Source of the DNA: Longimicrobiales bacterium
GTDB lineage: Bacteria > Gemmatimonadota > Gemmatimonadetes > Longimicrobiales > Gaopeijiaceae
Direction: 5' to 3'
Assembly (NCBI GenBank): GCA_965221265.1
Contig: OZ244873.1
Coordinates: 74,013 to 138,012 of the forward strand
DNA: 64,000 nt
Positions 717-39,274 of the stretch are shown one piece after another (position 1 is the first letter of the stretch; each line of letters starts with the position of its first letter). The notes under the pieces were generated by a model, which saw nothing but the letters and a program-made list of their open reading frames with translations, ran no database searches and was not told the origin of the DNA. A program made the translations under genes and the position numbers.

Positions 717-1226
717 ATGATCGAAGCCAGCCGCAGGTTCCTGTCCGCCACCGCCGCCACGTTGCTGGCGGTCACGCTCACCGGCGCGGGCGGACTCCCG
801 GACGCCGTGGCCGAGCCCCCCGTGGGCGCGTCGGCGATCGAAGCGGCCAACGCCAACGATCCCATCGAGGTGGGCTGGCGGCTCCTGGCCAGCCTCAACT
901 ACAGGACCGGCGAAAAGAGCGAGGATTTGGCCGCGCTGGACGGCCAACTCGTGAAGGTCCCCGGCTTCACCGTGCCCCTCGAGGACTGGGCGTCGTCGGC
1001 GACGGAGTTCCTGCTGGTGCCGTACGTGGGCGCGTGCATCCACACGCCGCCTCCCCCACCCAACCAGCTCGTCTACATCGAGATGGAAGACGGCAAGCGG
1101 GCGACTTTGGACGGCTGGAATCCGGTGTGGGTCGAGGGCGTGCTCGAGATCGAGATGACGGAAAGCGTCTACGGCGACGTCGGGTTCACGATCACCGGCC
1201 AGCAAGTCTACCCGTACGAGTATTAG
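717..1226 (+). CDS. DUF3299-like small secreted protein (signal peptide), first gene of an ABC exporter-like operon
   Basis: 169 aa with an N-terminal signal peptide (LLAVTLTGAGG). It precedes an ABC ATPase and an FtsX permease, an arrangement typical for DUF3299-type accessory proteins. Confidence 0.55.
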   Translation: MIEASRRFLSATAATLLAVTLTGAGGLPDAVAEPPVGASAIEAANANDPIEVGWRLLASLNYRTGEKSEDLAALDGQLVKVPGFTVPLEDWASSATEFLLVPYVGACIHTPPPPPNQLVYIEMEDGKRATLDGWNPVWVEGVLEIEMTESVYGDVGFTITGQQVYPYEY

Positions 1227-1346
1227 GCGGCGCGGGCCGTAGCCCGCGTACGAGCGCGCGTTCCCGGGAGCGGGGAGCGCGTGCCGCGTGGCGGGACACA
1301 TCGTAGGGATACGCAATAGCCGACGCTCCCTGGGGAGGCGCAATCG

Positions 1347-2039
1347 ATGAGCCTTGGGAGCCTCGCGATCGACATCCGGCATCTCCGGTTCCGCTACGAC
1401 GGAGCCCCTTGGGTGCTGGACATCCCCGAGCTGACCCTCGAACGCGGCGAACGCGCGTTCCTGTTCGGGCCCAGCGGGAGCGGCAAGACCACGCTGCTCG
1501 GCGTGCTGGCGGGGGTGCTCGAGGCGGACGAAGGCGAGGTCGGGGTGCTCGGAAGGAACCTGGCCGCGCTCTCCGGCGCGCGGCGCGACGCCTTCCGGGC
1601 GGAACACGTGGGTTACGTCTTCCAGATGTTCAACCTCATCCCCTACCTCTCGGTGCTCGACAACATCGCCCTGCCCGCGCGCATGAACGCCGGACGCCGG
1701 GCCCGGCTCGACGGCGCGGGCGTGAGGGAGGCCGCCGCGCAGCTCGCGGATCATCTCCACATCGGCGATCTGCTGGAGAAACGGGTGACGGAGCTCTCCG
1801 TGGGCCAGCAACAGCGGGTGGCCGCCTGTCGGGCCCTGATCGGGGCTCCGGAGCTCATTGTGGCCGATGAGCCCACCTCCTCCCTGGACTTCGATCGCCG
1901 CGAAGCCTTCCTCAAGCTGCTCTTCCAGGAGTGCGAACGCGCCTCCTCCACGCTCGTGTTCGTGAGCCACGACCGCACGTTGGAGGGGATGTTCTCCCGC
2001 ACGATTTCGCTTCCCGACATCAACAAGGTGGCGTCCTGA
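1347..2039 (+). CDS. ABC transporter ATP-binding protein (MacB/LolD-like)
   Basis: Walker A GPSGSGKTT, ABC signature LSVGQQQRV, Walker B LIVADEPTSSLD, H-loop VSHD. Confidence 0.9.
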   Translation: MSLGSLAIDIRHLRFRYDGAPWVLDIPELTLERGERAFLFGPSGSGKTTLLGVLAGVLEADEGEVGVLGRNLAALSGARRDAFRAEHVGYVFQMFNLIPYLSVLDNIALPARMNAGRRARLDGAGVREAAAQLADHLHIGDLLEKRVTELSVGQQQRVAACRALIGAPELIVADEPTSSLDFDRREAFLKLLFQECERASSTLVFVSHDRTLEGMFSRTISLPDINKVAS

Positions 2040-3526
2040 TGCTCGTTCTCGACCTCGCACTCAAGTCGCTCCGCAACCGTGCCTTCAGCACCTCGCTCAC
2101 CGTGGGCTCCATCGCCCTCAGCGTCGCGCTCCTGATTGGCGTCGAGAACGTGCGCGAGGGCATGCGCGAGAGCTTCTCCAACACCATCAGCCAGACCGAC
2201 CTCATCGTGGGCACCAAAGGCGGCACGATTCAGCTGCTGCTGTATTCGGTCTTCGGCATGGGGGCGTCGACGGAAAACGTTTCGTGGGAGGCGTACAGGC
2301 AGTGGGCGGAGCACCCCGCGGTCGCGTGGACCATTCCGTACAGCCTGGGGGACAGCCACAGGGGATTCCGGGTCATCGGCACCAACGAGGACTTCTTTCG
2401 CCACTACCGCTACCGCGGAGGTCAGGAGATCGCGCTGGCGGAGGGACGGGCGAACGAGGAACTGTTCGACGTGACGCTGGGCGCGGACGTGGCGGTGGAG
2501 CTGGACTACGCGCTCGGCGACGAGATCTCGGTGACGCACGGGCTCGGCGAGGTGGGCTTCGTGCAGCACGACCACATGCCCTTCACGGTGGTCGGCGTGC
2601 TCGCCAAGACGTTCACCCCCGTGGACCGCGCCATCTACGTGACCCTGGAGGGCATGGAGGCCATCCACTGGGAGGACGGCGCGCCACCCGCGTCGGGCGA
2701 GACCCACGACCACGACCATGAGGCGGCGGCCGCGGACGACGACCACGCCCACGAAGCGGACGACGACGACGACCACGACCACGAGGCGGACGACGACGAC
2801 GCCCACGACCACGAAGCGGACGACGACGACGCCCACGACCATGAGGCGGACGACGACGACGCCCACGAAGTGGACGACGACCACGCTCACGACGACGAGG
2901 CGGAGGCGGCCGCGGCCCCCGCGGACGACGACCACGCCCACCAAGCGGATCTCTCCATCGAAGACGTCGAGGTTACCCAGGTGACCTCCTTCTTCGTGGG
3001 GACCACCAACCGGCGGGACGTGCTCCGGCTGCAGCGCGAAGTCAACGACTTCGAGGACGAGCCCATGATGGCGGTCATCCCCGGGGTGGCCCTCAACGAG
3101 ATGTGGCAGGGGATCGGCTACGCCGAGACCGGGCTCCGACTGGTCACCGTCTTCGTCGTGATGGTGGGGCTGCTGGGCATGCTCGTGTCGCTCTACACCT
3201 CGCTCGACGAACGCCGCCGCGAGATGGCGATCCTGCGCGCCGTCGGAGCCGGACCCGGACGCATCGTCGGGCTGTTGGTGCTCGAGTCGCTGTGCCTGGC
3301 CGGAGCGGGCGCCATCGCGGGATTGGGCTTGGTGTACGCGCTACTCTCGATCGCGCAGCCCATCGTCGAGGCCCAGGTGGGGCTCTTCATCCCCATCCGG
3401 GCCCCCGGATCCATCGAGCTCCTCTTCCTGGGCGCCGTGGTGACGGCCGGCTTCCTGATGGGCTTCGTGCCCGCCCTCAAGGCCTATCGCACGGCGCTGC
3501 ACGACGGGCTGGCGGTGCGGGTGTAG
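2039..3526 (+). CDS. ABC transporter permease, FtsX/MacB-like, with a His/Asp-rich insertion in the extracytoplasmic loop
   Basis: ATG overlaps the ATPase stop (TGATG). It has an N-terminal TM helix, a large periplasmic domain and C-terminal FtsX-type TM helices (LGMLVSLYTSLDERRREMAILRAVGA). Confidence 0.85.
   Translation: MLVLDLALKSLRNRAFSTSLTVGSIALSVALLIGVENVREGMRESFSNTISQTDLIVGTKGGTIQLLLYSVFGMGASTENVSWEAYRQWAEHPAVAWTIPYSLGDSHRGFRVIGTNEDFFRHYRYRGGQEIALAEGRANEELFDVTLGADVAVELDYALGDEISVTHGLGEVGFVQHDHMPFTVVGVLAKTFTPVDRAIYVTLEGMEAIHWEDGAPPASGETHDHDHEAAAADDDHAHEADDDDDHDHEADDDDAHDHEADDDDAHDHEADDDDAHEVDDDHAHDDEAEAAAAPADDDHAHQADLSIEDVEVTQVTSFFVGTTNRRDVLRLQREVNDFEDEPMMAVIPGVALNEMWQGIGYAETGLRLVTVFVVMVGLLGMLVSLYTSLDERRREMAILRAVGAGPGRIVGLLVLESLCLAGAGAIAGLGLVYALLSIAQPIVEAQVGLFIPIRAPGSIELLFLGAVVTAGFLMGFVPALKAYRTALHDGLAVRV
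2704..2950 (+). repeat. 30-bp in-frame tandem repeat (about 5 copies) encoding (H-D-H-E-A-D-D-D-D-A)n inside the permease gene
   Basis: Repeated unit gacgacgacgacgcccacgaccacgaagcggac. Translation: HDHDHEAAAADDDHAHEADDDDDHDHEADDDDAHDHEADDDDAHDHEADDDDAHEVDDDHAHDDEAEA. Confidence 0.85.
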
Positions 3527-3554: not shown

Positions 3555-4451
3555 TCAGCGCCCCGCCAGCCAGCGGTAGACCGCGCCCACATTGAGGGGG
3601 AACCACGCCTCGTACTGGCCCCAGTGGGCGTAGTCGTCGAGCCGCACGCCCGCCATGGCCTCCTCCTCCGACATCCCTTCGTCGAGCGCCGCCTGGACGG
3701 CGTCCCGCAGATCGCCGTAGTAGGCCAGCTGGCGCTCGATGGTGGCCCGGTCGCCCACGTCTCCGTGCCCGAAGACCACGGTCTCGAAGGGAATCTCCAT
3801 GAGCCGGTCGAGCGCCACGTAGAACTCGTCGAAGTGCCAACCCGGCAGATCCTGGTAGCCGACCCGGTCGTTGCTGACGAAATCGACCGCGAAGGCGACG
3901 CGCTCCTCGGGGAGGAAGGCCACCAGCAGGTTGTCGGTGTGGCTTCGTCCGAGGTACCGCAGCTCGATCGCGCGCCCGCCGAACCGGAGCGTCATCTGGT
4001 CGGAGAAGGTCAGGTCCGGGGGCGGAAGGTCCGGGTCGGCCCGCTCAAGGAGGATGGGCAGCGCGTTCTCCTGAGCGATGATCGGAACGTCGCCGCCGAA
4101 TTCGGCCCACAGCGCGGGCGCTCCGGTGGCGTGGTCGGCGTCGCTATGGCTGTAGACGATGGCCGCGAGGGGTTGGTTGGGCGCGGCACCGCGAATGGCG
4201 GCCCCTAGCCCGGCCGCCGCCTCCATCGAAATGGGGTCGAAGGCCACCACGCCGTCGTCGGTGTCCACGAAGAAGGCGTTGTGCGTGCCCGCGTTGTACC
4301 AGAAGACGCCGTCGGCGACCTGGCGGGTGGCGGCGTCCACCTCGGGAGCCTGCTCCGCCGTGTCGGCGCAGGCGCCCAAGGTCAGGGCGAGGGCGGTCGC
4401 GACCGCGAGCCCGGGCAGCGAGGTCGGGGGGGATGGGGTGGGTCGGGTCAT
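3555..4451 (-). CDS. MBL-fold metallo-hydrolase (metallo-beta-lactamase superfamily), secreted/lipoprotein
   Basis: HSDADH (HxHxDH) motif. Start chosen at MTRPTP with an AAGGAGGA RBS 7 nt upstream. The signal peptide LALTLGACAD looks like a lipobox. Confidence 0.8.
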   Translation of the reverse strand: MTRPTPSPPTSLPGLAVATALALTLGACADTAEQAPEVDAATRQVADGVFWYNAGTHNAFFVDTDDGVVAFDPISMEAAAGLGAAIRGAAPNQPLAAIVYSHSDADHATGAPALWAEFGGDVPIIAQENALPILLERADPDLPPPDLTFSDQMTLRFGGRAIELRYLGRSHTDNLLVAFLPEERVAFAVDFVSNDRVGYQDLPGWHFDEFYVALDRLMEIPFETVVFGHGDVGDRATIERQLAYYGDLRDAVQAALDEGMSEEEAMAGVRLDDYAHWGQYEAWFPLNVGAVYRWLAGR

Positions 4452-4611: not shown

Positions 4612-5666
4612 TGGTCGCAATTGGACTTCTGTTGGCGGGTCTGGTCGTGGCGTGTGCGGGTGCGGAAACGGCCGGCGACATTGCTCTGGTGCCATTCGCT
4701 GAGACCACCGTACCGTTGAGCGAAGACTCCGCTATTCGCCTAGTGGACGAGGGGACCGTCTGCACGACGGAGTCGTATGAGTTCCGCGTTCACTGCACGG
4801 ACGCGAGTGGCTCCCAAGTCTCGTCCTTCGGTCGCCAAGGCGAGGGACCGGGGGAGTTTCGGACGGGCGGCACCCTCGTGCGCGGACCTGACGAGACAAT
4901 CGGTGTCGTCGACATGGATCGGATGTCCGTGTTCGGCCGCGCGGGCACGCTCTTGTCGGAAGTACGTCTTCCACCAGGCTTCGTGAACGGCTCCGCAACG
5001 TTTTCGTCGACGCTGACCGGTGGATGGATGGACTTCATCCAAGGCGGGATGTCCTTCCGTCATGCGGAACTGGACGTGGCATCGGGGGAGGCCGTGTGGG
5101 ACAGGGTCTACCCCCGGCGATATGAGACCGACGCGGAATGCGAGGAGTTGGGAGATTGGCGAGGACTTATTGGAGGGCGATTCTCTCCGGCGCGAGGCGT
5201 GGTTTTTTCGCTATGCCGAGGGCAGCTGTTGTTCTTCGCCAACCGCGACACCCCAACCGGTACGCTTGTCCGTGCCCCGGCGTATGTCCCCGAGCTCCCG
5301 AACGAGGAGGAGGTGCGGGCCTACTTGGAGGAAGCGGGCCCGTTCGCGATGGAGGACTGGTATCGGCGCCAACCCAAGGGGTACTTGCGCGGCGGTCAAC
5401 TGGCGTTCGATGATGGGAGCAGGCTGTGGGCGCTCACGGACCGCGACCCGGGCGATGGCTTCTCCTACTTGGATGTGTACGAGGATTCGGCATTCCGAGG
5501 TACGATCCGCGTGCGTCACCACGCGCGGGGGATCGACCTGCTTGGTTCGACGCTCGTGGTACTCGTCGACCGCCCGGTCGGGCCCCGCGACGCCGACGGC
5601 TTCCCGGACCGTGGAGTGGACTGGTACGACATCGGCGAACTCGGTTTCGGGGTGGACGGACTCTGA
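4612..5666 (+). CDS. NHL-repeat / 6-bladed beta-propeller lipoprotein, paralog A
   Basis: Lipoprotein signal (LLAGLVVACAG). NHL-like motifs FGRQGEGPGEF...IGVVD. Start uncertain (GTG 4591 or 4612). The long ORF 4281..5666 is an upstream read-through artefact. Confidence 0.7.
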
Positions 5667-15122: not shown

Positions 15123-16102
15123 GCCCCCTCCCCTCCGACGTCCTCGACGCGCGCGCCCCTGCGGTTGACGGGCGAGACGAAGGCGTCGCACTCGAGCGCG
15201 GCGGTCTCCTCGAATACCTGGCGGATGCCCGCGGCGACGGCTTCGGCCACGGCGCGTCCCCGGCACAGCGCGAAGACGGAGGGCCCGGACCCGGAGATGG
15301 AGAGCCCGAGCGCGCCGCGCGCGAGCGCCTCCTCCCGGGCTTGCGCGAACCCGGGGATGCGCCCGGCGCGCACCGGCTCCGCGACGACATCGTGGAGGGA
15401 GCGCGAAATGAGGTCCCAGTCGGACGCGTGCAGTCCGGCGACGAAGGCGGCGGTGTTGGCCCACTGGGTGACGGCGGCCTTCAGGGGCACGTGTTCGCCC
15501 AAGGCGCGACGGGCGTCCTCGGTGCGGATGCGCAGGTGCGGGCGGACCACTACCGCCCACAGTCCCGCCGGAATGGGAAGCTCCACCACGTGCGGCGACC
15601 GTCCCGGCAGGACCAGCACGATGCCGCCGTACAGGGCCGGGGCGACGTTGTCGGCGGCGGGCGATCCCGACCCCGCCAGCTCGCCGGCGACCGCGCACCG
15701 GAGTAGTTGGCTCCGCGAGAGACCCGCCCCGGTCACCCGGTCGGCCGCGACCGCTCCCGCCACCGCGCTCGACGCGCTGCCACCCATCCCACCGGCCAAC
15801 GGGATGGCCTTGTGAAGTTCGAGCGCCACCCCGGCGGAATGGGCGTCCGCCACCTCCAGCACGGCCCGGGCGGCCGCCCCGGCGCTGTTGCGGGCGGCGT
15901 CCGTCGGGATGGGCCCCACGTCGCCGGTGACGCGCGTGATGGTCACGCCCGGGTGGGAGGCCGCGCGCGCGACCACCACGTCGCGGGGCCGCTCGATGGC
16001 CATGCCGAAGACGTCGAACCCGCACGCGATGTTGCCGATGGTGGCCGGCGCGGAGACGCGCACGGCGGCCGGGCCGCCGGGACGGCGCGTCTCCCCGGTC
16101 AT
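15119..16102 (-). CDS. thrB: homoserine kinase
   Basis: GHMP-kinase motif PLAGGMGGSASSAVAG; N-terminal NIACGFDVFG. Immediately upstream of thrC. Confidence 0.9.
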   Translation of the reverse strand: MTGETRRPGGPAAVRVSAPATIGNIACGFDVFGMAIERPRDVVVARAASHPGVTITRVTGDVGPIPTDAARNSAGAAARAVLEVADAHSAGVALELHKAIPLAGGMGGSASSAVAGAVAADRVTGAGLSRSQLLRCAVAGELAGSGSPAADNVAPALYGGIVLVLPGRSPHVVELPIPAGLWAVVVRPHLRIRTEDARRALGEHVPLKAAVTQWANTAAFVAGLHASDWDLISRSLHDVVAEPVRAGRIPGFAQAREEALARGALGLSISGSGPSVFALCRGRAVAEAVAAGIRQVFEETAALECDAFVSPVNRRGARVEDVGGEGA

Positions 16103-16240
16103 TCTTCCACCTCGCCGGTCATTTTTCCACCGCCGGTCATCCCTCCGCCTCGCCGGTCACTTTTCCGCCGCCGGTCATCCTGCCGCCTCGCCGGTCATCC
16201 TGCCGCCTCGCCCATCACCCTTCCGCCTCGCCCGTCATCC
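16096..16240. repeat. 20-bp tandem repeat (7-8 units; consensus CCGGTCATCCTGCCGCCTCG on the + strand) between the oxidoreductase stop and the thrB start
   Basis: On the coding (minus) strand each unit is ATGACCGGCGAGGCGGCAGG and ends in ...GGATGA. This gives serial overlapping 7-aa mini-ORFs (MTGEAAG*), the last of which is the thrB start MTGETRR. Confidence 0.85.
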
Positions 16241-26652: not shown

Positions 26653-29600
26653 CTACCGCACCCTCATGGCCCACACCGCGATGTGACCGGGCATGGAGCT
26701 TCCGCCCGGCGTTGTGACCTTGATGCTGGTCGGGCTGAGCGCGCCGGCCGGCGTCCAGTGGAAGTACAGGGACGAACCCGCCCGCACCCGCCGGCCCGTC
26801 AGGCGCGGGACGGTCGCGGACGAGGTGTAGGGCCGGAGGCGGGCGTTTTCGGGGAGATTGCCGAAGATGTCAGCAAGATCCCAGGTGCTCATGCCGTACG
26901 CCTGCCCGCCCCGTAGGTCGAGCCACAGGGACAGGTAGAAGTCGGCCAGAATCTGTTCGGCGTTCCATGCCTTGCCGGGGCTGACGTCGACCAGGGAGGC
27001 GAATCCCGTCGCCGACGACTGTGTCAGGCGCCGCATCATCGCGCGCTCTCCTCCCGGGTAGTCTCCGCCCCAACGGTCCAAGGCGTAGCGGTAGACCATG
27101 GAGGGGACGCCGTAGATCGCGCGATCCCCGAGCAAGCACGGACCCGAATTGCCATCATCCGGCTGACCGATCCAGCTACACTCCTCGGGGGCGCCAGTAA
27201 TCCTCCCGGCGCCGTCGCCACGCCAATCCCATCCGAAGAACTCGGCCAGATCGACGATCCAGTCCTGGTACCACGCTTGACTCTCAGCCGACTGCTTGAA
27301 CTCGGCCCAGCCCATCTCCCCACCTGATCCGTGCCCGAAGAGCCGGTAAGCGACGAGCTGTTCGGCCAGCGTGGCGCCACCCTCCCACTCCCAGGTAGCC
27401 TTGCCTCCGCCACCGCCGGCACTGCCGTAGATGTGGGCATCGGCCTGAATCAAGTGCGTCACTTCGTGGGCGACCAGCGACGGGTAATACTCCAGCAACG
27501 TCTGCTTGCCGACTGGATCGCCCACCACGCCTTGCGGATCCGGCACCTGCCCATAGAAGATCTCTGCCTGGTTGCTCGTCGCGCACCGCGCGCTCGGATA
27601 GAGATCCGCCGGCCAAACCCATCCGCCCACATTGTTCGCCCGATTCACTTCCTTGGTCATCAGCACCAGAAACCGGCCGTTGCCGTCCACGTCCGACAAT
27701 CCGCCGAAGTAGTCGTCGTGCACCTCCTTGCCGTTGGTCGAGTAGAACGCGTCCAAGCCCGCCAACTCCGCATCGGAGAACGTCTCCGACGGGTTGTCGA
27801 GGTCATCCAGCCAGATCGACGGGCCTCCGACGTGCCGCACCACCGCCCGCACCTGCCGCGCACTTGTGCACGTTGCCTCGAAGTCCGCATAGAGCGTCAA
27901 CGTGTCGCCCACCTGGAGCTCGCGCCGTGCGAACGCCGCCGCCACTCGAGCCGAGCGTCCCAACGTGCGCAGCAGGGCCTGGTTGCGCGCCATCATCTCG
28001 TTGTGCGCCCGTGCCCGCGCTTGGCGCAGCGTGTCGTCGACAAGCGGCCATTCCTGCGCACCGGCGCCGGATGGGACTGCGGTCCGCATGCCTCCTCCGG
28101 CGAACGGCGCCATGGGCCTGAACGGCCCATCCGCGAACGCGGCCATCGCTTCCCCGCCCTGCGATGACGCCATCCCCGAACCCACGTCCCCGGCTCCATC
28201 CGCGACCACGACGCGCCCGCGCTCCGCCCCGACCACCGTCGCGTCTCCGGGCGTGCCCGCCAACGTGACGCCCGTGAGCGACGCGGCGTTCTCCGAGACG
28301 GAAACCACGCCGATCATGAACTCGCCCCCGGAGGCGCTCGCCGGGAGGTGCAGGCACCCGTTCCCCTTGGACGTCGAGCGATACCAGCCCGGATCCAGCT
28401 CCAGATCCTCCCGGGTGCCCGGGGTCACGCCCACGGTGCGCGCTTCGGCGCTGGCGCCCACCGACACCCGCAGCTCCTCTCTGCGCGGCGGCAGGCAGTC
28501 CGCCAGGGGCACGATGATGGACAGGCTGGTCGCACTAGCCGACACGACCCGGGCGCCACGCCCGCCAACGGTGACTTGGTTCTGGGAAGCCGTCGTCGAG
28601 AACCCGGAGCCGAAGACGGTCGCGGGCGCCCCCTCCAGCAGCACGGCCGGGTCGGTTCCGGTGATCGTGACCCCTCCTTGGCTCCCCCGGGTCACCGTGA
28701 CGGCGAACACGATGCGCGCGCTCAGGCCGTCCGCGTCGGTGGCGGTGAAGGTCACCGTCGCCGCGCCCGGTGACACACCAACCACTCCCAACACCTCGTT
28801 CTCGACGACGGCCGTCAGGGCGACCGCCGTGTTCGAGCTGGTCGCGGCGAAGGTGAGCGAATCACCGTCCGGGTCGCTGAAATGGTCCAATCCGCGCCAA
28901 TTGGCGGATGCACCGGCCGCGAGCGTGAGGGCCCGGATGGTGTCCGCAACCTCCGGCGCCCGGTTGGGCACGGTCACCTCGAAGCTCTGCTCGGCGCTCA
29001 GGCCACCGGGGTCGTTGGCGGTCACGGTCACGGTCGTGGTCCCGCGTCCCTCGCCGGTCACGGTCACAACGCGGTCCGCCACGGCTACGCTCGCCACGCG
29101 AACGTTCGCGCTCGCCACCGCGTAGCGGAGGTCGTCCCCGTCGGCGTCCTCGAAGTAGGGCGACACGTCGATGGCCACCTCCTGTCCGGCCGCCAGCGTC
29201 TGGTCGGGCAGGGATCCAACGGGGCCGGGCGCCCGGTTGGGCACGGTCACCGGGAAGCCCTGCTGAGCCGCCAAGCCACCGGGGTCGGTCGCCGTCACCG
29301 TGACGGTGGCCTCGCCGGCCGCCACCGCCTCGATGGTCACGACGCCGCCCTCAACCGACACCCTCGCCACGCCCGCATTGGAGCTGGCCGCCGTGAAGGC
29401 GAGCGTGTCCCCGTCGGGGTCGCTGAAGTAGCCCGCCAGCTCCACCTCGGCGCTCTCGGCCACGAAAACCGTCTGCGTCGGCACTTCGCCCACCGCCTCC
29501 GGCGCCCGGTTGGGCACGGTCACCTCGAAGCTCTGCTCGGCGCTCAGGCCGCCGGGGTCGGTCGCGTTAACCGTGACGGTCGCCTCGCCCGAGCCGACCC

Positions 29601-30126
29601 CCTGAATGGCGAGCACACCGCCCGCCACCGACACGCTGGCCACCCCCGCGTCCGAGCTCTCCGTCGTGTAGGTGAGCACATCCCCGTCGGGGTCGCTGAA
29701 GTAGCCCGCCAGCTCCACCTCGGCGTTTCCACCCACGAAGACCGTCTGAGGCGACATGGTGCCGACCGCCTCCGGCGCCCGGTTGGGCACGGTCACCTGA
29801 AAGCTCTGCTGCGCCGACAGGCCACCGGGATCGCGCGCGGTCACCGTCACGGTTGCCGTCCCTTGGGCCACCGCCGTCACCGTTACCACGCCGCCGGACA
29901 CCGCGACCGAAGCCACGCCCGCGTTCGAGCTGCCCGCCGTGAAGGTCAGGACTCCCCCGTCCGGGTCGCTGAAATTGGCCGACACGTCGACGGTCGCCGT
30001 TTGCCCGACCGGAACCGTCTGGGCCGGAATCGACCCGGTCGCCAAGGGCGCCTGGTTCGGCGGAGGGGCGGTGGGCGCGCTGTCGCCGCATGCCGCAACC
30101 CATGTGACCGCCCCCAGCAGCACCAT
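26653..30126 (-). CDS. large secreted zinc metalloprotease-like protein (HExxH) with about six N-terminal cadherin/Ig-like tandem domains; lipoprotein
   Basis: Lipobox VTWVAACGD. Six ~95-aa repeats (FSDPDGDxLTYTAxSSxAGVASVxVxGGVxTxxxVxxGxATVTVTATDPGGLSAxQSFxVTVPNRAPE). C-terminal domain carries LVAHEVTHLIQ. Start ATG 30126 with an AAGAAGG RBS. Confidence 0.8.
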   Translation of the reverse strand: MVLLGAVTWVAACGDSAPTAPPPNQAPLATGSIPAQTVPVGQTATVDVSANFSDPDGGVLTFTAGSSNAGVASVAVSGGVVTVTAVAQGTATVTVTARDPGGLSAQQSFQVTVPNRAPEAVGTMSPQTVFVGGNAEVELAGYFSDPDGDVLTYTTESSDAGVASVSVAGGVLAIQGVGSGEATVTVNATDPGGLSAEQSFEVTVPNRAPEAVGEVPTQTVFVAESAEVELAGYFSDPDGDTLAFTAASSNAGVARVSVEGGVVTIEAVAAGEATVTVTATDPGGLAAQQGFPVTVPNRAPGPVGSLPDQTLAAGQEVAIDVSPYFEDADGDDLRYAVASANVRVASVAVADRVVTVTGEGRGTTTVTVTANDPGGLSAEQSFEVTVPNRAPEVADTIRALTLAAGASANWRGLDHFSDPDGDSLTFAATSSNTAVALTAVVENEVLGVVGVSPGAATVTFTATDADGLSARIVFAVTVTRGSQGGVTITGTDPAVLLEGAPATVFGSGFSTTASQNQVTVGGRGARVVSASATSLSIIVPLADCLPPRREELRVSVGASAEARTVGVTPGTREDLELDPGWYRSTSKGNGCLHLPASASGGEFMIGVVSVSENAASLTGVTLAGTPGDATVVGAERGRVVVADGAGDVGSGMASSQGGEAMAAFADGPFRPMAPFAGGGMRTAVPSGAGAQEWPLVDDTLRQARARAHNEMMARNQALLRTLGRSARVAAAFARRELQVGDTLTLYADFEATCTSARQVRAVVRHVGGPSIWLDDLDNPSETFSDAELAGLDAFYSTNGKEVHDDYFGGLSDVDGNGRFLVLMTKEVNRANNVGGWVWPADLYPSARCATSNQAEIFYGQVPDPQGVVGDPVGKQTLLEYYPSLVAHEVTHLIQADAHIYGSAGGGGGKATWEWEGGATLAEQLVAYRLFGHGSGGEMGWAEFKQSAESQAWYQDWIVDLAEFFGWDWRGDGAGRITGAPEECSWIGQPDDGNSGPCLLGDRAIYGVPSMVYRYALDRWGGDYPGGERAMMRRLTQSSATGFASLVDVSPGKAWNAEQILADFYLSLWLDLRGGQAYGMSTWDLADIFGNLPENARLRPYTSSATVPRLTGRRVRAGSSLYFHWTPAGALSPTSIKVTTPGGSSMPGHIAVWAMRVR

Positions 30127-38943: not shown

Positions 38944-39066
38944 AACTCATCGAGACCGGCTGAGGGACTGGCCCTGTGAAGCCGGGGCAACCGGATCGTT
39001 CTCCCTGGAGAGCGATCAGCGGTGCCAACTCCCGCGGGTTCCGGAAATGGAATCCGAGAGATGAGT
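38944..39066 (+). promoter_or_regulatory. SAM-I (S-box) riboswitch
   Basis: cTCATCgAGAccggcTGAGGGAcTGGCCCtgTGAaGCCggGGCAACC ... GGTGCCAAcTCC ... GAGAGATGAG. The P1 halves CUCAUC/GAUGAG, the GGGA...GGCCC pseudoknot/P2 elements, and the GCAACC and GGUGCCAA consensus blocks are all present. Confidence 0.8.
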
Positions 39067-39274
39067 GCCTCGGTCGGCTCCTCGCCGCCCGGCGGTTCCA
39101 GGGGTTGGCATCGCGTCCAACCCGTGGAGAGCCAGCATGCGAGCGACCACCGCCCCACCCCGCCCGACCCCCGCGCCGCCGTTCCTTCCCGCCGCCAACG
39201 CGCGCGCTTCCAATGACGGTCGGCCTCCGGCCGCCCCCGCGCTGCCACCCACCGCCCGTCGCGGGACCGTCTCC

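Follow-up and report, generated by a model that had tools for sequence, protein, structure and literature searches.

What does a tandem repeat rich in histidine and aspartate do inside the membrane permease of an ATP-binding cassette (ABC) transporter? The question is raised by a 64,000-nucleotide (nt) stretch of DNA (hereafter the window; contig OZ244873.1, positions 74,013 to 138,012) from a Longimicrobiales bacterium of the phylum Gemmatimonadota, in which a MacB/FtsX-type permease gene (2036-3526, + strand) contains a repeat-encoded tract of His, Asp, Ala, and Glu. The answer that we favor, and consider probable, is that the tract is a built-in periplasmic loop that captures zinc and stands in for ZrgA, the separate periplasmic zinc-binding protein of related proteobacterial systems.

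Tandem Repeats Finder (TRF) placed the core of the array at 2706-2868 (+ strand), with 5.3 copies of a 30-bp (base pair) unit encoding DDDD(A/D)HDHEA, 88% matches, and a score of 222. Degenerate copies prolong the period-30 array to about 2941 (TRF rows of period 54 and 60, scores 240-250). Among the tandem arrays of the window, only a 273-bp repeat at 29228-29973 is stronger. The period-30 array reads in frame with the open reading frame (ORF) of the permease and gives a tract of 83 amino acids (aa) at 2702-2950 (+ strand; residues 223-305), whose codon-aligned sequence is THDHDHEAAAADDDHAHEADDDDDHDHEADDDDAHDHEADDDDAHDHEADDDDAHEVDDDHAHDDEAEAAAAPADDDHAHQAD. The tract consists of 41% Asp, 25% Ala, 19% His (16 residues), and 10% Glu. 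Asp and Glu together make up 51% of it versus 11% of the remaining protein, and His 19% versus 1.9%; at that background, at least 16 His in 83 residues corresponds to a binomial p of 6e-12. Eight HxH dyads are present. A first-pass annotation made from the letters alone had described five in-frame 30-bp repeats here, and its coordinates, frame, repeat count, and location agree with the TRF result, the ORF, and the translation of the tract; its figure of about 35% His was too high, and that of about 45% Asp/Glu slightly low. The five other reading frames over the tract give runs of Thr, Arg, Pro, Val, or Ser. An antisense ORF of 397 aa (1751-2944, - strand) with Val-, Ser/Trp- or Arg/Pro/Gly-rich runs over the tract was rejected as a gene because the ORF on the + strand has Pfam and structural support; it is best read as a by-product of high GC content plus the repeat. 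A terminator-like hairpin at 2969-2988, inside the permease ORF, was likewise discarded, being at chance level (one found, 1.1 expected).

The permease gene is the last of an operon (717-3526) whose products resemble the zinc-starvation systems of Vibrio and Pseudomonas. The first gene (717-1226, + strand) encodes an exported DUF3299 protein of 169 aa, the homolog of ZrgE/PA4066 (PF11736, E = 5e-34; PDB 4HSP, E = 1.5e-23), which bears out the secreted DUF3299 protein that had been noted upstream of the permease. The second (1347-2039, + strand) encodes a MacB/LolD-type ABC ATPase of 230 aa (PF00005), the counterpart of ZrgC/PA4064; its best NCBIfam similarities are YbbA, LolD, and FtsE, each under its cut-off. 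In V. parahaemolyticus, the zrg operon encodes DUF2607 (ZrgD), ZrgA, an ATPase, a permease, and DUF3299 (ZrgE), is regulated by Zur and zinc, and is induced 75-200-fold in low zinc (PMC9817125). The homologous Vibrio operon contributes to zinc acquisition (PMC9817125, PMC9820375); ZrgA, to which its His-rich loop contributes 4-5 additional zinc sites, is needed for low-zinc growth (PMC9820375). In P. aeruginosa, the counterpart is the Zur-regulated PA4063-PA4066 operon, from which 4HSP is the crystal structure of PA4066 (PMC8561739).

We retrieved the V. parahaemolyticus zrg locus (L087) for comparison. It shares three core proteins with the window, the ZrgB permease, the ZrgC ATPase, and the ZrgE DUF3299 protein, at 41-52% identity: the permeases are 52% and 41% identical on the two sides of the tract (E = 2e-79), the DUF3299 proteins 43%, and the ATPases 48% (full length). 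The invariant periplasmic residues GDSH, H168, H178, D197, and EAIH are also shared. The gene order differs, being DUF3299-ATPase-permease in the window and zrgD-zrgA-ATPase-permease-DUF3299 in Vibrio, and Vibrio ZrgB has a 27-aa loop without His where the window permease has its 83-aa tract. In the alignment the tract is a clean insertion, with query residues 216-288 lacking a counterpart. P. aeruginosa resembles the window in its DUF3299 protein, matched by 4HSP, and in its split MacB-type ATPase and permease (PMC11481552), whereas PA4063 supplies His-rich loops in trans and the window carries the loop in the permease itself; the permease loops of Pseudomonas/Stutzerimonas type (L025, L049) contain 0-1 His. 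The function proposed for the P. aeruginosa system is export of pyochelin-cobalt (PMC11481552). Permeases of the ZrgB/PA4065 type were also recovered from ZrgA-containing operons of many Proteobacteria. No ORF of the window matched a ZrgA (PF10986) profile at E <= 10, and ZrgA was not found in the flanked loci (L002-L008, L010, L021) of Candidatus Palauibacter, the group of the closest homologs and, judged by the names of these close matches, the marine Gemmatimonadota group of the window bacterium as well. By homology, the window operon is a three-part Zrg-type system lacking ZrgA and ZrgD. The metal-handling ABC system suspected in the first-pass annotation is thus strongly supported by the likeness to Zrg/PA4064-PA4066 proteins. 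Zinc-related neighbors occur in related loci, namely FolE2 (L002), ZnuA (L050), a CDF zinc transporter (L045), and a Fur-family regulator (L091).

The permease (495 aa) is the counterpart of ZrgB/PA4065, and its ATG overlaps the stop codon of the ATPase gene (ATGA at 2036-2039). Pfam places MacB_PCD (PF12704) at residues 19-209 (E = 2.2e-15) and FtsX (PF02687) at residues 369-486 (E = 4.8e-16), both above the gathering score. We built an AlphaFold2 model on a 140-sequence alignment; its mean pLDDT (predicted local distance difference test) was 86.8, with 374 residues at 90 or higher and a confident core (>90). Helices span residues 16-48, 349-392, 407-448, and 459-492, and a mixed alpha/beta domain spans 56-347, so that the model has four transmembrane (TM) helices and a large extracytoplasmic domain between TM1 and TM2. 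The cognate ATPase gene lies directly ahead of the permease gene, as expected for a type VII ABC permease. Foldseek matched the model to LolCDE, MacB, HrtBA, and YbbAP with probability 1.00; on the strength of these fold matches and the Pfam domains, we assign the protein to the type VII ABC permeases. Sequence identity to these four is merely 11-16%, and their substrates (lipoproteins, macrolides or toxins, haem) differ from metal ions. To our knowledge, no His-rich periplasmic insertion has been described for MacB, LolCDE, HrtBA, or YbbAP.

Residues 215-300 had pLDDT below 50 and no secondary structure in the model, and the tract is predicted to form a disordered loop in the periplasm. Together with the fold matches, the model backs its placement between TM1 and TM2, in the extracytoplasmic domain where it had been put at first sight. 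The tract lies between helix 204-212 and strand 318-323, which, judged from the known topology of MacB, would put it at the return from the Sabre to the Porter subdomain. The His-rich loops of ZnuA and ZrgA likewise lack order, abound in His, Asp, and Glu, vary in length, and have low affinity; they serve as auxiliary zinc sites beside a primary site (PMC8561739, PMC9820375). The window tract resembles them in its predicted disorder and its enrichment in His, Asp, and Glu; it differs in sitting in a membrane permease and not on a soluble binding protein, in being much longer, and in being tandemly repeated. Outside the tract, D106 and H108 (GDSH), H168, H178, D197, and H211 (EAIH) are invariant or nearly so in 140 diverse family members, regardless of whether the loop is His-rich or plain, and H211 precedes the tract by a few residues. 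These six His/Asp residues are a candidate conserved metal site of ZrgB-type permeases.

We then compared the permease loop with the presence of ZrgA across genomes. A scan of species-representative genomes with an 11-sequence subset of the alignment as query yielded 80 loci from Gemmatimonadota, Acidobacteriota, Bdellovibrionota, Alpha-, Beta-, and Gammaproteobacteria, Verrucomicrobiales, and Desulfobacterota. Two gene orders occurred, DUF3299-ATPase-permease and ZrgA-ATPase-permease-DUF3299, and in the latter the His-rich ORFs that precede the ATPase belong to PF10986 (ZrgA). Among the 62 loci with sufficient flank, all 24 with ZrgA had 0-1 His in the permease loop, and 21 of the 38 without ZrgA had at least four, with a maximum of 56 (Fisher's exact p = 3e-6). 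Clustering at 70% identity left 12 clusters with ZrgA and a His-poor loop, none with ZrgA and a His-rich loop, 10 without ZrgA and with a His-rich loop, and seven with neither (p = 0.001). Seven further loci were chosen as tests, and all seven fit the exclusion: ZrgA accompanied a 27-aa loop without His in V. parahaemolyticus (L087) and loops without His in two Gemmatimonadota (L090, L091), and no ZrgA accompanied the His-rich loops of Psychromonas (L085), V. vulnificus (L086), L088, and L089. When the sets were pooled, all 27 ZrgA loci had 0-1 loop His and 25 of the 42 ZrgA-less loci were His-rich (Fisher p = 7e-8). The His-rich permease loop therefore appears to alternate with ZrgA.

L091 shows the other arrangement within Gemmatimonadota. 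Its M20-family amidohydrolase gene is 82% identical to that of the window, indicating a fairly close relative, and in its operon ZrgA is paired with a permease whose loop is short, with a Fur-family gene close by. The L091 ZrgA (5001-5651) has a tandem duplication of its own (EGHSHSEDEDAHSDD, two copies), and by its residues this loop seems to offer the same chemistry as the permease tract, on the soluble partner. A search with the ZrgA of L034 as query found further ZrgA proteins in Gemmatimonadota (P0405, P0408, P0461). None of the named Gemmatimonadota matches belongs to Palauibacter, and the two that were inspected (L090, L091) adjoin short-loop permeases. These results are consistent with the absence of ZrgA from Palauibacter genomes and are no proof of it.

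The tract itself recurs in all close relatives. A His/acidic tract of 42-202 aa occupies the same site in each of the 120 nearest homologs, which belong to Ca. Palauibacter and show an overall identity of at least 70%. The Palauibacter repeat unit is APADDGHAHDEEAEA; the conserved form in the 120 homologs reads A-P-A-D-D-G-H-A-H-D-E-E-A-E-A, with a core DDGHxH[DE][DE]E and variable linker residues, and the 10-residue unit of the window, DDDDAHDHEA, looks like a derived variant of it. Of 1687 loop His in this set, 92.7% are in HxH dyads, whose modal spacing is 15 residues. Loop length is very labile: among 285 homolog pairs with at least 97% identity in the rest of the protein, 270 differ in it, as do 12 of 16 pairs with identical cores, often in steps of about 15 residues (e.g. 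83, 68, and 53 aa), figures to be read with the caveats that collapsing the database at 90% identity enriches for differing lengths and that repeats can be mis-assembled in metagenomes. The suggestion in the first-pass annotation that the repeat number is a slippage hotspot is supported by these pairs.

The alignment of homologs that the annotation had proposed, to see whether the insertion is lineage-specific, showed the tract to be one case of a recurrent family-wide feature; the link to ZrgA was not part of that annotation. In 150 representatives of 50%-identity clusters, the loop at this site has a median of 27 residues, preceded by only the His of EAIH. Forty-two of the 150 loops are at least 45 aa long, and 35 of these 42 contain at least 10% His; pooled, the expanded loops have 17.7% His, 14.3% Glu, 13.1% Asp, and 12.3% Ala, against 2.4% His in the cores. 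The longest loops, of up to 243 aa and up to 70 His in units such as HDEHEHHDEATHEE, occur in Psychromonas, Aliivibrio, and V. vulnificus; those of Psychromonas and Aliivibrio, with 67-70 His, use a different repeat unit, in AT-rich genomes. Since repeat units differ between lineages, the His/acidic loops probably reflect convergence at the amino-acid level and not a shared insertion. Other chemistries occur at the same site as well. Some Gemmatimonadaceae permeases (L011, L014, L019; P0123, P0126) have Pro/Ala/Gly-rich expansions of 70-135 aa with MPGAxPPP-type repeats and almost no His. The loop of L015 (Verrucomicrobiales) contains Cys (DHSNCNHPAHDH), that of P0186 has seven Cys in HSGCNHPSH/EECDHSE repeats, and the Pseudomonas/Stutzerimonas loops (L025, L049) have Cys pairs; the Cys-containing loops may represent an alternative metal-binding or disulfide chemistry.

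We interpret the locus as follows. The products of genes 717-3526 are the DUF3299 protein, which is exported, the ATPase in the cytoplasm, and the permease, which is of the MacB type and combines four helices with a large domain in the periplasm. Proteobacterial systems have one more component, the periplasmic ZrgA, which binds zinc partly via a floppy His/Asp/Glu loop and is required for zinc acquisition (PMC9820375). The Palauibacter operon has no zrgA; instead its permease has an 83-residue loop, predicted to be disordered, with eight HxH pairs set among Asp and Glu, one loop per permease subunit and thus two per transporter if the permease dimerizes like MacB. We propose that the loop acts as a low-affinity, high-capacity antenna, which would collect Zn2+ (or another divalent transition metal of similar kind) in the periplasm and hand it to a conserved part of the periplasmic domain, for which D106, H108, H168, H178, D197, and H211 are the candidate acceptor site, replacing ZrgA or the loop of ZrgA in cis instead of in trans. 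By slippage or unequal recombination between short in-frame repeats, such a loop could grow and shrink fast and so tune its capacity. That the loop is a low-affinity metal-binding module is supported only indirectly, by its composition, predicted disorder, the family-wide His/acidic convergence, and the exclusion with ZrgA. Zinc is the most likely metal, given Vibrio genetics (PMC9820375, PMC9817125) and the zinc-related neighbors in related loci.

Several points weigh against this interpretation. We infer metal binding, zinc as the metal, the hand-over, the direction of transport, and control by Zur. Seventeen ZrgA-less loci have short, His-poor loops, including close relatives of the window (L012, L016-L018, L037; about 84% identical), which means that the loop is not obligatory when a locus is without ZrgA. 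A few expanded loops are Pro/Ala/Gly-rich and without His (the five mentioned above). The loci were chosen by similarity to the query and are not phylogenetically independent. The search for ZrgA covered flanks of 5-10 kb and the 64-kb window, and a zrgA gene may lie elsewhere in the genomes. No Zur box could be defined from the loci compared. We know of no MacB-type pump that carries its substrate inward across the membrane. In V. cholerae, the His-rich loop of ZrgA is dispensable for growth (PMC9820375), so that such loops may be accessory rather than essential, and the PA4064/65 pump has been argued to export pyochelin-cobalt and not to import zinc (PMC11481552).

Three other explanations of the tract were considered. 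We judge it unlikely that the loop is a sensor or brake, loaded with metal only at high periplasmic zinc and blocking or down-tuning the transporter in that state. The loop does lie at the hinge of two periplasmic subdomains, right after H211, where its ordering could affect movement, and a similar role has been proposed for the His-rich loop of ZnuA and for PA4063, whose zinc affinity is only micromolar and which is a proposed concentration sensor (PMC8561739). Such a device has, however, no obvious need for 8 to >60 His or for a copy number that varies fast, and the exclusion with ZrgA, which is required for uptake in V. cholerae (PMC9820375), fits a substitution in metal delivery better.

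Quite unlikely, in our view, is a substrate other than free zinc, be it cobalt or nickel, an exported metallophore complex, or bulk Ca2+ or Mg2+ held by the acidic residues. The argument that PA4064/65 exports pyochelin-cobalt (PMC11481552) speaks for this, as do the MacB/LolCDE/HrtBA fold, whose members extrude or extract their substrates, a HupE/UreJ-type gene near the His-rich locus L088, and the 51% Asp/Glu of the tract. On the other hand, genetics in V. cholerae and V. parahaemolyticus ties the homologous operon to zinc acquisition (PMC9820375, PMC9817125), the neighbors FolE2, ZnuA, the CDF zinc transporter, and the Fur-family regulator in related loci point to zinc, and no metallophore biosynthesis genes adjoin the operon in the window locus or in L002-L004.

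Least likely of the three is a neutral low-complexity expansion, in which GAC/CAC-rich repeats slip in a Sabre-to-Porter loop that tolerates insertions and the tract has no function: although loop length varies greatly even among homologs whose cores are identical, close relatives manage well with a loop of 28 aa (L012, L016-L018, L037), some expansions at the same site are Pro/Ala/Gly-rich without His, and the ZrgA His loop of V. cholerae is dispensable (PMC9820375), 35 of the 42 long loops in the family representatives have converged on His with Asp/Glu despite unrelated units and different codon usage, 92.7% of the clade's loop His stand in regularly spaced HxH dyads with a conserved DDGHxHDEE core, and a His-rich loop stands alongside ZrgA in none of 27 ZrgA loci.

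If the loop is indeed a built-in zinc-capturing element, a broader proposal follows, which we put forward tentatively. Zrg-type pumps might exist in two interchangeable designs, with repeated switches between them. In one design, a soluble His-rich zinc chaperone, ZrgA, would serve a permease with a plain loop; the alternative would have the His-rich element fused into the periplasmic hinge of the permease, with loss of ZrgA. The switch would have been repeated in Gemmatimonadota, in Psychromonas/Aliivibrio/V. vulnificus, in several Alpha- and Betaproteobacteria, in Bdellovibrio, and in Verrucomicrobia. Were this true, the periplasmic domain of the permease would be the real metal acceptor, with the invariant His/Asp residues as the acceptor site, and a pump of the MacB fold, working by mechanotransmission, would act directly on a metal ion.

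These considerations matter because Zrg/PA4063-66 systems are widespread, aiding virulence in Vibrio and adaptation to zinc starvation in Pseudomonas, and because their mechanism is disputed with regard to import versus export, delivery by ZrgA, and the role of the MacB-like periplasmic domain. A natural 'fusion' variant, with a His-rich permease and no ZrgA, would point to the periplasmic domain of the permease as the place that receives the metal. Besides, the tract clearly illustrates how a repeat-encoded loop can evolve fast, here in marine bacteria that are uncultured and live where zinc is very scarce. The Zrg/PA4063-66 family is already known, and, as far as the searchable literature shows, the His-rich permease loop is a recurrent and previously undescribed feature of it: no description of such a loop appeared in the Zrg, DUF3299, and PA4065 literature, of which our coverage was incomplete, and this is no proof of novelty.

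With regard to regulation, the 40-bp gap before the DUF3299 gene holds an AT-rich perfect palindrome, TTATCGATAA (688-697). It is unique in the 64 kb even at one mismatch (0.07 expected by chance) and stands in a genome of 70% GC. L091, the locus with the nearby Fur-family gene, has a related sequence, TTATCAGTAA, between its divergent zrgA and DUF3299 genes (L091 4907-4916). The palindrome is a candidate operator of a Fur-family regulator (perhaps Zur), unproven as such. Neither L002-L004 nor the other Palauibacter loci conserve it ahead of the operon, and palindromes of this type are rare and unshared across the Gemmatimonadota loci apart from L091. A scan for the sigma-70 promoter consensus found none. 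FolE2, a zinc-independent isozyme, is a typical member of the Zur regulon. In a sister Palauibacter genome, a folE2 gene (NCBIfam equivalog, 288 bits) directly follows the permease gene (L002 9552-10358, - strand).

The DUF3299 protein begins with MIEASRRFLSATAATLLAVTL (window 717-810), which, read by eye, resembles a signal peptide; its S-R-R-x-F-L-S pattern possibly represents a twin-arginine (Tat) signal. If so, the protein would be exported folded and perhaps loaded with a cofactor. A DUF3299 ORF is present in 73 of 85 sources (84 loci and the window). Upstream of it, the window starts within the gene of a secreted M20-family amidohydrolase (1-677, + strand; TIGR01891, 8e-46; PF07687 M20_dimer), of which it contains the 3' part. 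The complete gene, for a product of 540 aa, is seen in L001 (L001 2661-4283). L001 is identical to the window over 7059 bp and is for that reason uninformative on copy-number polymorphism. The M20-DUF3299 pairing also occurs in L002, L004, and L091, and the M20 gene is a conserved upstream neighbor in several Palauibacter loci (L002 5052-6692; L004 5121-6755). In L091 (8008-10148), the M20-DUF3299 pair has no adjoining ABC pump, and a related arrangement in V. vulnificus has two DUF3299 genes preceded by one for an Amidohydro_3 protein (L086 2073-5206). The pairing hints that DUF3299 may work with periplasmic metallohydrolases.

Further upstream, L001 has a TonB-dependent receptor gene (L001 323-2326) some 3 kb ahead of the first position of the window; a 69-aa ORF separates it from the M20 gene. 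The receptor is closest to the BtuB and siderophore receptor families, under their cut-offs, and may belong to the same uptake cluster, in the window genome only. Downstream, the operon converges with the gene of a metallo-beta-lactamase-fold protein of 298 aa (3555-4451, - strand; PF00753), corresponding to L001 7161-8057. This neighbor is not conserved beside the operon, and L002-L004 have other downstream genes.

Elsewhere in the window, the tandem array at 29228-29973 consists of 2.7 copies of its 273-bp unit and probably encodes repeated protein domains, and another array, at 16091-16240, has 7.7 copies of a 20-bp unit (alternatively, 3.7 copies of a 38-bp unit). A SAM riboswitch (RF00162) lies at 38944-39067 (+ strand), with 81.7 bits against a gathering score of 44.4.

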